A stretch of DNA of 64,000 bases from a virus. The notes under the pieces were generated by a model. That model was not told the origin of the DNA, made no database searches, and was given only the letters and a program-made list of their open reading frames with translations. Positions 6,703 to 9,418 of the stretch are shown here, in pieces (position 1 is the first letter of the stretch; each line of letters begins with the position of its first letter). Position numbers and translations under genes: made by a program. The DNA lies in the IMG/VR virus record IMGVR_UViG_3300021963_004549, positions 5,904 to 69,903 of that record; one strand, 5' to 3'.

Positions 6703-6852
6703 ATGGCAAAAGAAATGATTAAACGCAAGGATGGTTCTGTCTCACAACGTGGGTTGTGGGACAACATTCGTGCTGCAAAAGGCTCTGGTAAGAAGCCTAC
6801 AGCTGCTATGTTAAAGCAGGAGAAGAAAATCAAGGCTAAGGCTAAGAAGTAA
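6703..6852 (+). CDS. small Lys-rich basic protein (49 aa), first member of the polycationic array
   Basis: MAKEMIKRKDGSVSQRGLWDNIRAAKGSGKKPTAAMLKQEKKIKAKAKK. Confidence 0.35.
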   Translation: MAKEMIKRKDGSVSQRGLWDNIRAAKGSGKKPTAAMLKQEKKIKAKAKK

Positions 6853-6932
6853 TGAACGATCATTGCCCAATACATGAATTAGCTCTTGAGGAAGGACAAT
6901 GTCCTAAATGTCTAGAACAATCTAATATATAA
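6852..6932 (+). CDS. tiny Cys/His-rich peptide (26 aa), possible zinc knuckle
   Basis: MNDHCPIHELALEEGQCPKCLEQSNI; CxxH...CxxC spacing. Confidence 0.2.
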   Translation: MNDHCPIHELALEEGQCPKCLEQSNI

Positions 6933-6937
6933 ATAAA

Positions 6938-7474
6938 ATGGCAACTATTAAAAAAGCCCAAGCTGGTCTTAAACATAGCCAATACAAAAGAATTGGTAGA
7001 CTAGAAAAGAAAAATCCTGAAAGAGCTGAAAAAGTATTAGGACGCATGACAGAAAGAGCTACACGTTATAAGCGTGGTAAAGCGTTTGCTGAATCTCTTA
7101 TGCCTAAGGAAGACCTACCTGCATTTAAGGCTAGAACTATGGCAGAAGCTAAAGATAATAAGAAAGCCCAAGGTGGTAAGGTAAAGAAATCATTCCCTGA
7201 TTTAAATAAGGATGGTAAGATTACTAAAGCTGATATCCTTAAAGGACGTGGTGTTATTGCTAAGAAGGGTGCTAAGATTAAGAAAGCTCAAGCTGGATTA
7301 ACTGCTTCTAATAAGCGTGTAGGACCAATTGATCCTAAAGGTGCTTGGACTAAGGTTCAAGAAATGAACTTACCTCCTCGTAATGTTAAAACTAAAGTTA
7401 GTCTTACAAGAGACAAACAGTTAGGTGCTACAAAAATGAAGATGGGTGGTAAAGCAAAAGCTAAAAAGAAATAG
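6938..7474 (+). CDS. polycationic Lys/Ala/Gly-rich protein, KKAQxG repeat family (histone-H1-like composition)
   Basis: MATIKKAQAGL..RLEKKNPERAEKV..KKAQGGKVKK..IKKAQAGL..KMGGKAKAKKK; no hydrophobic core. Confidence 0.5.
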   Translation: MATIKKAQAGLKHSQYKRIGRLEKKNPERAEKVLGRMTERATRYKRGKAFAESLMPKEDLPAFKARTMAEAKDNKKAQGGKVKKSFPDLNKDGKITKADILKGRGVIAKKGAKIKKAQAGLTASNKRVGPIDPKGAWTKVQEMNLPPRNVKTKVSLTRDKQLGATKMKMGGKAKAKKK

Positions 7475-7476
7475 TC

Positions 7477-7776
7477 ATGGCTGCTATAAAAAAATATAAT
7501 GTCCCTAGAGATAATGCTATGGCAGATGCTTTAGATAGACAAGATGGTTATGGTAAGTATGCTCCCAAAAATAATGAGGCTATTAGTAATAAACCTATGA
7601 AGTCTGGTGGTAAGGTGGCTAAAGATGGTAAGTGGATGCAGAAGGTATCTAAGTCTATTAAGGCTAGAGGTACAGAAGGTAAATGCACTCCTATCACCAA
7701 ACCTGGTTGTACAGGTAGAGCTAAAGCTCTTGCTAAAACATTTAAGAAGATAGCTGCAAAGCGTAAAGCTAAATAA
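7477..7776 (+). CDS. polycationic Lys-rich protein, family member
   Basis: MAAIKKYNV..KSGGKVAKDGKW..AKALAKTFKKIAAKRKAK. Confidence 0.5.
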   Translation: MAAIKKYNVPRDNAMADALDRQDGYGKYAPKNNEAISNKPMKSGGKVAKDGKWMQKVSKSIKARGTEGKCTPITKPGCTGRAKALAKTFKKIAAKRKAK

Positions 7777-7777
7777 C

Positions 7778-8218
7778 ATGGCTAGAATTCCTAAAACAAA
7801 GGTTTATAATCCACAGAAGGCTGAAGCCTATGTTGGTAAGGGAGTTCTTAAAGCTGGTGGTAAAATTACTCCTGTTCCTAATGGTCCTCTTATTAAAAAG
7901 AAGGGAGAGTTTAAAGGCTCTACATTAAAGGATGGTGGTAAGGTTAGCCCAGCATGGCAAAGAAAAGAGGGTAAAAACCCTGAAGGTGGTTTAAATGCTA
8001 AGGGTGTAGCTTCTTATAGAAAAGCTAATCCAGGTAGTAAACTAAAGACAGCTGTTACCACTAAACCTTCAAAACTCAAAGCTGGTTCTAAAGCAGCAAG
8101 TAGACGTAAGTCTTTCTGTTCTAGAATGTCAGGTATGAAAAAGAAACTCACATCTGCTAAAACGGCTAACGATCCTAATAGCAGAATTAATAAATCACTT
8201 CGTAAATGGAATTGTTAA
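7778..8218 (+). CDS. polycationic Lys/Gly-rich protein, family member
   Basis: MARIPKTKVYN..KAGGKITPV..KDGGKVSPAW; TAACATGG coupling. Confidence 0.5.
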   Translation: MARIPKTKVYNPQKAEAYVGKGVLKAGGKITPVPNGPLIKKKGEFKGSTLKDGGKVSPAWQRKEGKNPEGGLNAKGVASYRKANPGSKLKTAVTTKPSKLKAGSKAASRRKSFCSRMSGMKKKLTSAKTANDPNSRINKSLRKWNC

Positions 8219-8219
8219 A

Positions 8220-8750
8220 ATGGCAAAAGTAAAAAAAGCACAACTTGGTGATCATCTTGTTAAAAGAAAATCACAAGATGATAGAATACACAGAATAGAA
8301 AAGAAAGACCCTGAAAGGGCTGAACGAGTAGCTGCTCGTGTACAAAAAAGAGCTTTAAGTTCAGTTAAACCAAGTTCAGTTAAGCCACCAAGCAAAATGT
8401 TTATACCATTAAGGGAGCGTGCAAAAGCTGCAAAAGAAAAAAAAGCTGCTGAAGCTGCAAAAGCCCCTAAAGCTCAAAGTGGCGACTCATTAGTTTATGA
8501 AACTAAAGGTGTTCGTTATCCAAAAAGAAGACTAGCTGTTGATACAACTGGCTATGCTGAGGGTAAAAAAACATTCAAAGGTACTGGTAGGTATTTAGAA
8601 GGATTAGAATCAGGTGTATATAAAGATTATCCTGCAAAACCTAAAAAATATGGCAGAAAGATTGTAAAATCAATCATAAATGCTAAAGGTGCAACACCAA
8701 AGAAAAGAACTGGTGGTAATATTACCAAGAAAAAAATTGTTAAAAAATAA
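8220..8750 (+). CDS. polycationic Lys-rich protein, paralog of 6938..7474
   Basis: MAKVKKAQLGD..RIEKKDPERAERV parallels MATIKKAQAGL..RLEKKNPERAEKV. Confidence 0.5.
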   Translation: MAKVKKAQLGDHLVKRKSQDDRIHRIEKKDPERAERVAARVQKRALSSVKPSSVKPPSKMFIPLRERAKAAKEKKAAEAAKAPKAQSGDSLVYETKGVRYPKRRLAVDTTGYAEGKKTFKGTGRYLEGLESGVYKDYPAKPKKYGRKIVKSIINAKGATPKKRTGGNITKKKIVKK

Positions 8751-8762
8751 AAACTTATAAAA

Positions 8763-9278
8763 ATGGCAACTGTTAAAAAGGTTAAAAAAGCCCAAAGGGG
8801 TGGTTGTGTATCAAATATGAGCGGTGCACAAAGACAAAGATATTTCCAAAGTGCATATGGACCTAGTCCTCTTCAAAAAGCTGGTCAAGCTATCAAAAAT
8901 GTTTTCAGTGGTGGTAAAACTAAAGAAGAGCGTCAAGAAGCTAGAGCAGAACGTAAAGCTATTAAAGCTTCTAAAAAATCAGTACCTGGTGCTAAATACG
9001 GTAAGAGTGTTGTTAAGAAAGCTCAAGATGGTAAAGCTCTTCGAAACACAAAAGAACATGAAAAAAACAGAAAACAATCAACAGCACTCACTGAAATGGG
9101 TAAGAAAACCACTAGAGCTGCTATAGACAAACGTACTGATGAAATGGCTAAGTCTTTAGACAAAGCTTCTGTTTTTGGTAAGAACTATGTTGCAGCTGGT
9201 GATTCAGCTAAGAAAAAAGCTGTTAAGAAGCCTGTTCCTAAAAAGAAGATGGGTGGTAAATGTAAATATGGTTGCTAA
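8763..9278 (+). CDS. polycationic Lys-rich protein, family member
   Basis: MATVKKVKKAQRGG..VKKAQDGKA..KKMGGKCKYGC. Confidence 0.5.
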   Translation: MATVKKVKKAQRGGCVSNMSGAQRQRYFQSAYGPSPLQKAGQAIKNVFSGGKTKEERQEARAERKAIKASKKSVPGAKYGKSVVKKAQDGKALRNTKEHEKNRKQSTALTEMGKKTTRAAIDKRTDEMAKSLDKASVFGKNYVAAGDSAKKKAVKKPVPKKKMGGKCKYGC

Positions 9279-9418
9279 TGAAATCAGGTAAACCACGTTT
9301 GGCTCCTAAGGTTAGAAACCCTAAGCCTAACAAGCCTTATATGAGGGAATCAGATAATACTAGAAATAAAGGTAAGAGCCCTATGGCTCCTATGACTGGT
9401 AAGAAATTATCAAAATAA
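9278..9418 (+). CDS. small basic Lys/Pro-rich protein (46 aa), last member of the array
   Basis: MKSGKPRLAPKVRNPKPNKPYMRESDNTRNKGKSPMAPMTGKKLSK; TAATG overlap with upstream stop. Confidence 0.35.
   Translation: MKSGKPRLAPKVRNPKPNKPYMRESDNTRNKGKSPMAPMTGKKLSK

Follow-up and report, generated by a model that had tools for sequence, protein, structure and literature searches.

The stretch analysed here comprises 64,000 nucleotides of an uncultured virus (IMG/VR record IMGVR_UViG_3300021963_004549, positions 5,904 to 69,903 of that record; hereafter the window), and between positions 6703 and 9418 its + strand carries seven closely packed, consecutive open reading frames (ORFs), g1 to g7, all encoding extremely basic proteins. 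Both features had been recognised in an earlier note made from the letters alone and are confirmed here. The genes, together with the short sequence modules into which they resolve, are as follows.

6703..6852, + strand: g1, 49 amino acids, module A
6938..7474, + strand: g2, 178 amino acids, modules B, C and D
7477..7776, + strand: g3, 99 amino acids, modules e and E
7778..8218, + strand: g4, 146 amino acids, modules F and G (G being Pfam DUF6321)
8220..8750, + strand: g5, 176 amino acids, modules b and I
8763..9278, + strand: g6, 171 amino acids, modules J and j
9278..9418, + strand: g7, 46 amino acids, module K

Each protein has an isoelectric point (pI) of 10.3-11.2 (10.7 for g1), a grand average of hydropathicity (GRAVY) of about -1 and contents of 20-26% Lys, 4-15% Ala and 6-11% Gly; summed, the 865 amino acids carry a net charge of +177, and the longest run free of charged residues is 12 residues. 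The start of g7 was set at the ATG at 9278, which overlaps the g6 stop codon as TAATG; relatives of g7 begin with MKSGKPRL and are 46 amino acids long, and the TTG at 9272 given by the ORF finder is incorrect. Against relatives, the ratio of nonsynonymous to synonymous substitution rates (dN/dS) is 0.04-0.12 for g1, g4 and g7 (0.04-0.06 for g7 itself), the mark of strong purifying selection, and 0.30 for g5, while the 0.8 obtained for g6 says little because it is based on a divergence of only ~2%. The low ratios of g1, g4 and g7 speak for translation, the lack of which the earlier note had named as a ground for giving up its reading, and g1 to g7 are, on this evidence, real, translated and constrained genes.

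The seven genes had been taken for an expanded family of paralogs, and this is where the description had to be revised. In composition-corrected comparisons the N-terminal 45 amino acids of g2 and g5 are 53% identical (E 7e-9), and all other pairs among g1 to g7 and three further small basic ORFs of the window (x1 to x3, described below) gave E > 0.1. The paralogy once assigned to two of the proteins holds for this N-terminal domain of g2 and g5, and the homology is limited to the N-termini. The supposedly shared N-terminus MAx[IV]KK is carried by only four of the seven proteins (g2, g3, g5 and g6) and is missing from the other three; 'MA' starts are frequent throughout this phage genome. Likewise, the KKAQxG repeats occur in g2, g5 and g6 and are absent from the other four. 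Within these limits the repeats are genuine, since six copies of KKAQxG stand in the array against 0.01 expected from shuffles, as do four copies of [MLIV]KxGGK against 0.04 expected. A six-frame scan of the window found both motifs confined to the array, save one chance match in a 47-codon open frame. The motif copies use differing synonymous codons, so selection acts on the peptide and not on the DNA.

The array resolves into ~11 mutually unrelated modules of 30-90 amino acids each (module H being found in relatives only), punctuated by ΦKKAQxG at module starts and by ΦKxGG(K) followed by poly-K at module ends (Φ, a hydrophobic residue). By these comparisons the array is a mosaic of ~11 unrelated short modules, not a set of seven paralogs. 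Nor is it purely low-complexity in nature, as had been thought, several of the modules containing invariant, non-repetitive motifs. The modules are listed below.

Module A (g1): RKDGSxSQRGLWDNIRAxKGSGKKPTxxMLKQEKKI; in most related cassettes, alone or fused
Module B (g2, amino acids 13-54): predicted helical hairpin
Module C (g2, amino acids 84-115): invariant SFPDLNKDGKITKADILKGRGVI, EF-hand/dockerin-like loop
Module D (g2, amino acids 120-172)
Modules e and E (g3): joined by an MKSGGKV linker
Module E (g3): KWMQKVSKSIKARGTEGKCTPITKPGCTGxAKALAKTFKK; two conserved Cys
Module F (g4, amino acids 1-56): predicted disordered, two ΦKxGGK motifs
Module G (g4, amino acids 57-146): Pfam DUF6321
Modules b and I (g5): b is a paralog of B
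Modules J and j (g6): two KKAQxG motifs, C-terminal KKKMGGKCKYGC
Module K (g7): MKSGKPRLAPKVxNPKPNKPYMRESDNTRNKGKSPMAPMTGKKLSK

In g2, KKAQxG precedes each of modules B, C and D, and the C-terminal end is MKMGGKAKAKKK. An alignment of 50 g2 sequences revealed the invariant stretches SFPDLNKDGK.T.ADILKGRGVI, S.KRVG..D..GA.TKVQ and L...K.LGATKM, the first of which contains the loop of module C; this loop, D88-L-N-K-D-G-K-I-T-K-A-D99, follows the canonical DxNxDGxIxxxD pattern and is invariant in the 50 homologs, with profile scores that stay sub-threshold (Dockerin_1, 14.8-16.1 bits against a cut-off of 22.9; EF-hand_5 also below its cut-off). In g4, amino acids 65-144 match Pfam DUF6321 (PF19846) with 72.4 bits against a cut-off of 28.5 (E 4.7e-20), and none of the other six proteins matches this domain. 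Scans of g1 to g7 and x1 to x3 against Pfam, PHROGs and NCBIfam returned only DUF6321 and unnamed PHROGs, and profile searches of the PDB with the g2 and g4 alignments gave no match.

Structure prediction with AlphaFold2 (AF2) assigned g2 a mean predicted local distance difference test score (pLDDT) of 60, with only amino acids 11-50, the helical hairpin of module B, near 80. Across modules C, D and F the pLDDT is below 60 despite their invariant columns (~50 for C and D; ~50-59 in the loop of module C), and g4 is of low confidence outside DUF6321. Most modules are predicted to be disordered on their own.

Relatives of the array are abundant in metagenomes. Homologs of g2 number 2,497 at E <= 1e-3 in a metagenome protein collection, none of them with a Pfam domain or a name, and those of g4 at least 8,000. 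An exhaustive representative-protein search of 1.84 billion proteins, with g1, g3, g5, g6 and g7 concatenated as the query, matched 1,278 clusters, among which module E, present in nearly all related cassettes, was the most widespread. The same locus lies on IMG/VR contigs of ~95-118 kb; g5 is the variable member, with only 12 related IMG/VR loci found. When ~90 related loci were annotated for modules with seed peptides, the modules proved to be fused, split and reordered in many combinations, for example A|BCD|E|FH|G|Jj|K, E|FH|G|eA|C|BD|K and D|E|FA|G|C|K (vertical strokes separate genes), with module K terminal wherever it is present in these listed architectures. Even near-identical strains differ, g4 being split into a separate F gene and G gene, and the 50-sequence alignment of g2 contains additional modules inserted precisely at the linkers. 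Among 376 distinct cassette proteins KKAQxG occurs 175 times, 108 of them within residues 1-10, and 54 of the 66 internal copies examined are preceded by a K-x-G-x-x-Φ tail, so that the internal junctions look like the end of one gene fused to the start of another. A nucleotide search of the region against cultured phages gave no match, and the literature on DUF6321, Leptolyngbya phage Lbo-JY46 and lysine-rich internal phage proteins yielded nothing relevant.

The source phage is, by its gene content, an uncultured crAss-like podovirus. PHROGs and Pfam identified a crAss-type large terminase, an 861-amino-acid portal and a 517-amino-acid capsid protein along with the tail-ring proteins CrAss_Ring_2 and CrAss_Ring_3_4, a set that bears out the short-tailed virion proposed in the earlier note. 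RIIA and RIIB homologs, a family-A-like DNA polymerase, a ribonucleotide reductase and UvsX are also encoded in the window, and tRNA genes are absent. The nearest cultured relatives are distant, with large terminase (TerL) identities of 40% to Leptolyngbya phage Lbo-JY46 and 32% to Cellulophaga phage phi4:1. A cassette-bearing relative of 112 kb was binned in a metagenome-assembled genome (MAG) of Sediminibacterium (Chitinophagaceae); this relative and the promoter-like motifs described below lend weak support to the assignment to Bacteroidetes phages, the host probably belonging to the Bacteroidota.

A first line of evidence connecting the modules with virions comes from DUF6321. The domain was found in 535 cultured aquatic phages, namely cyanomyoviruses, cyanopodoviruses, pelagiphages and OM43 phages, whose copies are 51-86% identical to that of g4. 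Its gene lies between terS and terL in the cyanomyoviruses P-HM2, S-SM1 and S-B43, and in P-SCSP1m and HTVC115P it directly follows the major capsid gene; throughout, DUF6321 genes are placed in late regions, and in four unrelated phage types they stand among head and packaging genes. On the phage contig of a Neomarinimicrobiota MAG, three small, very basic genes (positions 5452-6225; K+R 34-39%) are located between terS and terL and encode proteins of 61 (with a SAYANGWLV motif), 107 and 94 amino acids, the last being DUF6321. The cyanomyovirus DUF6321 protein, T4-GC119, is a 297-495-amino-acid mosaic of basic, Cys-containing modules (495 amino acids in S-SM1), and the virion proteomics of Sullivan et al. 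2010 (PMC3037559 Table S8) records it from purified S-SM1 particles at 13 peptide counts, a level like that of neck and portal proteins. This homolog in S-SM1 is the sole proteomic support for the cassette modules. The cryogenic electron microscopy (cryo-EM) paper on P-SCSP1u leaves the small gene after the capsid gene unmentioned.

As a separate observation, Marine virus AG-345-E15 (positions 1981-7242 of its contig) encodes four consecutive charged mosaic proteins of 416, 632, 454 and 178 amino acids. The first of them is a cytidylyltransferase, a kind reported as T4-GC190 in S-SM1 virions (PMC3037559). The third, of 454 amino acids, contains a DUF6321 that shares 86% identity with the domain in g4.

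A second line comes from other crAss-like phages. In the search of 1.84 billion proteins, modules A and E were also found inside proteins of 471-1355 amino acids, two of which could be located on crAss-like contigs. On both contigs the order is the muzzle gene (crAss_MUZ), a protein of 1642-1650 amino acids (carrying an SLT domain on one of them), the module-bearing protein, a protein of 637-908 amino acids and a giant of >3,700 amino acids. Within this muzzle-downstream block, module A matches the 855- and 1251-amino-acid proteins (E 9e-19 and 4e-18), module E the same two proteins (E 3e-22 and 3e-9, respectively) and module H the 1642-amino-acid protein (E 4e-25), and module j gives a weak match to the 908-amino-acid protein (E 4e-4). 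In ΦcrAss001 the genes following the muzzle specify proteins that were all found in virions, namely cargo proteins gp45 and gp46 and the RNA-polymerase proteins that are packaged; cargo zones of ~5.1 MDa (capsid) and ~0.4 MDa (tail) add up to ~5.5 MDa (PMC10172136).

A third link was provided by module C, which is part of a 536-amino-acid protein (E 1e-10) encoded between the portal and scaffold/capsid genes of another phage; the C-terminus of this protein matches PHROGs of tape-measure and internal proteins. Module sharing with virion proteins or with cargo and head gene blocks would accordingly extend, on these homologies, over four phage lineages.

Several further leads were followed without gain. 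When 10 long proteins with modules were scanned with Pfam for partner domains that might be informative, nothing but one DUF3597 turned up. Amino acids 385-425 of ΦcrAss001 gp45 resembled module E by eye, and this candidate was dropped as the profile hidden Markov model (HMM) of the module gave no support. The density of Gly-Gly (GG) pairs was only modestly above expectation after the muzzle gene and was not used as evidence, because it is also very high in an unrelated tail-fibre repeat protein.

The cassette forms the end of a long + strand block, on which a tail-fibre repeat protein and lysis genes are located upstream in relatives. The features that delimit it, and the small basic ORFs further upstream, are listed here.

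6352..6383, + strand: Bacteroidota-type promoter-like motif TTTG-N19-TAnnTTTG, 26 nt upstream of ORF96
6409..6699, + strand: acidic leader gene ORF96, 96 amino acids, pI 4.3, net charge -9
9470..9497, either strand: bidirectional intrinsic-terminator-like hairpin, 12-bp stem with a T-run after it, flanked on either side by A/T runs
871-1020: x1, basic, with the hydrophobic/Lys N-terminus MKKILDIIKKLFGKKK
1610-1717: x2, basic
1717-1842: x3, basic, dN/dS 0.05 (purifying selection)

The motif TTTG-N19-TAnnTTTG has 8 matches in the window against 2.8 expected, a number reached in 3 of 100 shuffles; of 58 distinct relatives, 13 have the full motif upstream of the ORF96 homolog and 34 have the -7 box alone. 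The element at 6352..6383 is called promoter-like by consensus match alone. Two further matches (44855-44885 and 44514-44546) lie directly 5' of the + strand terminase/portal/capsid operon, whose first ATG is at 44898. ORF96 matches no Pfam family and has homologs in 96 loci; in 82 of these the homolog is the direct upstream neighbour of the first basic ORF, at a median distance of 28.5 nt. Its product might assist the basic proteins as a chaperone or partner. The hairpin sits where the cassette converges with minus-strand genes. With its promoter-like motif, acidic leader, seven basic genes and terminator, the region 6352-9497 looks like one late transcription unit.

The ORFs x1 to x3, which flank a GH19 endolysin gene (1007-1603), had been counted with the array to give at least 10 members. 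Pairwise comparison and the six-frame scan found neither cassette modules nor either of the two motifs in them, and they are therefore not cassette members, basic as they are. No homolog of x1 was found among the fetched loci; the three may be lysis accessories.

Other genes of the vicinity deserve brief mention. Two genes upstream of the cassette unit, a DUF5856 protein is encoded (5660-6064; Pfam E 5e-14) whose HW...LH helix pattern recalls, by eye only, Dps/ferritin-like proteins. Before it stands a run of putative surface or fibre proteins (2570-2713, 3773-4357, 4371-4769 and 4781-5647) that vary between relatives and feature poly-Thr tracts, leucine-rich repeats and a weak PKD-domain match below the Pfam cut-off. 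In relatives, a 1159-amino-acid Gly-rich repeat protein (contig L114, 503-3982), corresponding to a position ~6 kb upstream of the first gene of the window, has a C-terminus resembling by eye an S74-type intramolecular chaperone, and is a probable tail fibre. On the - strand, two glycosyltransferase genes (9523-10988; GT2 and GT11 by Pfam matches on identical contigs) converge on the cassette terminator, and the product of the ORF at 10982-11272 is GroES-like by eye. Farther away, the RIIA-like (771 amino acids) and RIIB-like (545 amino acids) genes occupy 19915-23990 on the - strand, adjoined by an HNH endonuclease gene (19468-19869), and an SPFH/Band 7 protein (Pfam E 6e-27) is encoded at 51360-51890 between the portal and major capsid genes, an unusual place for this family.

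The reading favoured here, to which a probability of roughly 0.55 is given, is that g1 to g7 are cargo or core proteins located inside the virion, in association with the packaged DNA. The basic proteins would be produced late, alongside the structural proteins, and loaded into the capsid or tail cargo space of a crAss-type virion, where the charge of +177 per set would let them lie against the packaged DNA and screen its charge; their unfolded state would then permit exit through the tail with or ahead of the DNA, and the predicted disorder is compatible with both storage and passage through a narrow channel. The invariant motifs, such as the Ca-loop-like DLNKDGKITKAD and the Cys pairs of modules E, G and J, could be binding sites that fold on a partner, be it a metal ion, DNA or the inside of the portal or capsid; that DUF6321 is conserved among phages whose capsids are unrelated, and that the proteins are so strongly charged, suggests that the partner they share would be DNA. 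The linkers might be protease sites, incorporation signals or just spacers. Each module appears to be an independent unit, which would explain the free fusing, splitting and reordering between ORFs. As cargo or core proteins, the seven would be accounted for most simply with respect to the late, self-contained unit, the module sharing, the disorder and the neutral fusion and splitting. An internal-virion location had already been guessed in the earlier note, and it gains real, if indirect, support from T4-GC119 in S-SM1 virions and from modules A, E and H after muzzle genes; as a whole, that note was largely right in its observation and wrong about the family.

A number of results weigh against an internal-virion role. 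T4-GC119 was undetected in S-PM2 virions (PMC3037559 Table S8), and in HTVC024P the DUF6321 gene follows an endolysin gene (M15 peptidase). A tblastn search of 50,697 cultured phage genomes with g2, g5 and g1+g3+g6+g7 recovered no relative. Module HMMs (jackhmmer) against the ΦcrAss001 ORFs of 30-70 kb reached a best E of ~0.3, and the proteins of the muzzle-downstream block compared with gp44, gp45 and gp46 by phmmer gave E >= 0.014; since the modules have no match to gp45 or gp46, the link to proven cargo consists of synteny and of homology to uncharacterised proteins. In the window, moreover, the cassette is separate from the muzzle and cargo genes and comes after the fibre and lysis genes. 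Near-invariant sequence is unusual for non-specific DNA condensers, and no protease domain was found in the ~60 window ORFs scanned with Pfam, the window covering 64 of ~112 kb.

The last of these results bears on an extension of the cargo reading, compatible with it, in which the linkers (ΦKKAQxG and/or xGG|K) are cleavage sites and the ORFs are precursors of ~11 functional peptides, in the manner of adenovirus pVII and pre-Mu processing. The motifs stand exactly at module boundaries, at gene starts and ends as well as at internal junctions, extra modules are inserted at the linkers, and close strains split g4 into F and G genes; if the products were cleaved, fusion and fission of modules would be selectively neutral. 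The same pattern is given by flexible linkers or incorporation signals, however, the motif is one residue off the adenain consensus (M/L/I)xGG|x, and the scanned ORFs contain no protease domain for the cleavage; this refinement is regarded as rather unlikely.

Location is what separates the favoured reading from one in which the proteins are late nucleic-acid binders that stay in the infected cell unpackaged, coating or condensing replicated DNA or binding RNA or ribosomes; such binders might hand DNA over to the terminase or bring about host shut-off. The strongly basic composition suits this role, a packaging accessory would be no less expected in the place that DUF6321 genes occupy in several phages, between terS and terL, and the conservation of sequence among phages whose capsids are unrelated suggests a partner common to all, for instance DNA. 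The presence of T4-GC119 in purified S-SM1 virions, of A, E and H in the muzzle-downstream block and of C in a portal-adjacent protein argues for packaging, with a dual role still compatible, and a purely intracellular function is considered improbable.

The cargo reading can also be carried much further, to a combinatorial core-peptide system in which ~11 cationic beads set between ΦKKAQxG and xGGK would be released by a protease and packed with the DNA, with ORF96 as chaperone and with a module pool, DUF6321 included, on which cyanophages, pelagiphages and crassviruses would all draw as a common toolkit. An abundant freshwater and estuarine crAss-like clade would then possess a prokaryotic counterpart of adenovirus pVII and Mu; taken as one joint claim, this is speculative and improbable in its entirety.

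Activity on the cell envelope was weighed as well, the proteins then being polycations that aid lysis or entry as outer-membrane permeabilisers or as Ca-dependent binders of surface polyanions. The cationic 'disruptin' gp28 of phage phiKT is such a permeabiliser; the cassette lies ~5 kb downstream of the GH19 endolysin gene in the same strand block, the HTVC024P DUF6321 gene follows that of the M15 peptidase, and module C has a dockerin/EF-hand-like loop. The sequences speak otherwise, offering no amphipathic segment with a hydrophobic face (the best 18-residue windows have negative mean hydrophobicity), no uncharged run longer than 12 residues and no visible signal peptide or transmembrane segment, and with the virion and synteny evidence pointing elsewhere this role is very unlikely. 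That the genes are an artefact, chance open frames in A-rich DNA with a purely compositional likeness, as the loss of most pairwise similarities under composition correction might suggest, is already refuted by the dN/dS of 0.04-0.12 for g1, g4 and g7, homologs in the thousands, the invariant non-repetitive motifs and the above-threshold Pfam domain match of g4.

Internal and cargo proteins govern genome storage and delivery in tailed phages and are known for few model phages. The cassette, found in thousands of metagenomic proteins, combines near-invariant sequence, predicted disorder, extreme charge and free shuffling, which are unusual together, and it connects marine DUF6321, the crassvirus proteins encoded after the muzzle gene and the small basic ORFs beside terminase genes. 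With the module peptides and motifs defined, virion proteomes and cryo-EM maps can be searched for them. Should binding of the modules to packaged DNA be borne out, it would be relevant to the way 110-118 kb are accommodated in a crAss-type capsid and to the coupling of protein and DNA ejection.

Among known systems, histone H1 and Hc1 are likewise Lys/Ala-rich and predicted to be disordered, and the earlier note had likened the array to them and to adenovirus core proteins. Relatedness to any of these was not borne out: g1 to g7 matched neither Linker_histone nor Hc1 profiles (Pfam E <= 1, NCBIfam E <= 0.1), PDB searches were empty, and for adenovirus pVII, V and Mu nothing was found in Pfam at E <= 1. 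The Lys content of H1 tails exceeds the 20-26% of the cassette, and, in contrast to these tails, the cassette proteins have invariant non-repetitive motifs. Adenovirus VII, V and Mu are polycationic, as the cassette proteins are, and condense the genome in the capsid, their precursors being cut beside GG motifs. They belong to another virus lineage, however; in the cassette motif [MLIV]-K-x-G-G-K the hydrophobic residue is at P5, not at P4 as in the adenain consensus, and the scan of window ORFs revealed no adenain-like protease.

The T4 internal proteins IPI, IPII and IPIII are small and basic, are packed in the head with the DNA and co-injected, and share a short N-terminal targeting sequence, to which the MAx[IV]KKAQxG start of three to four of the seven cassette genes is formally analogous. 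They have no sequence relation to the cassette, and neither a T4-type prohead protease nor an (L/I)xE motif was seen; the cassette motif also occurs internally, at module junctions, whereas the T4 proteins are folded and are not modular mosaics.

The DUF6321/T4-GC119 proteins share the domain of g4 and are also mosaics of short basic, Cys-containing modules. They differ from the cassette in being single long proteins (83-495 amino acids) with other companion modules, without KKAQxG punctuation, and in belonging to other hosts and capsid lineages. The cargo proteins gp45 (C1) and gp46 (C2) of ΦcrAss001 (Bayfield et al. 2023, PMC10172136) reside in a virion of the same architecture, as indicated by the crAss ring proteins, and modules A, E and H occupy their position in other crAss-like phages; gp45 is GG-rich (2.4 GG per 100 amino acids, a value not used as evidence) with basic termini, and both cargo and cassette proteins are thought to be stored partly unfolded. 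In contrast, the ΦcrAss001 cargo consists of large muzzle-adjacent proteins with 13% K+R, against ~27% in the cassette, which is made up of small separate genes in a unit of its own that ends the late genes. Internal and cargo proteins of phages are a known kind, and the modular, punctuated polycationic architecture of the cassette would add to them an undescribed form that is widespread in uncultured aquatic phages.

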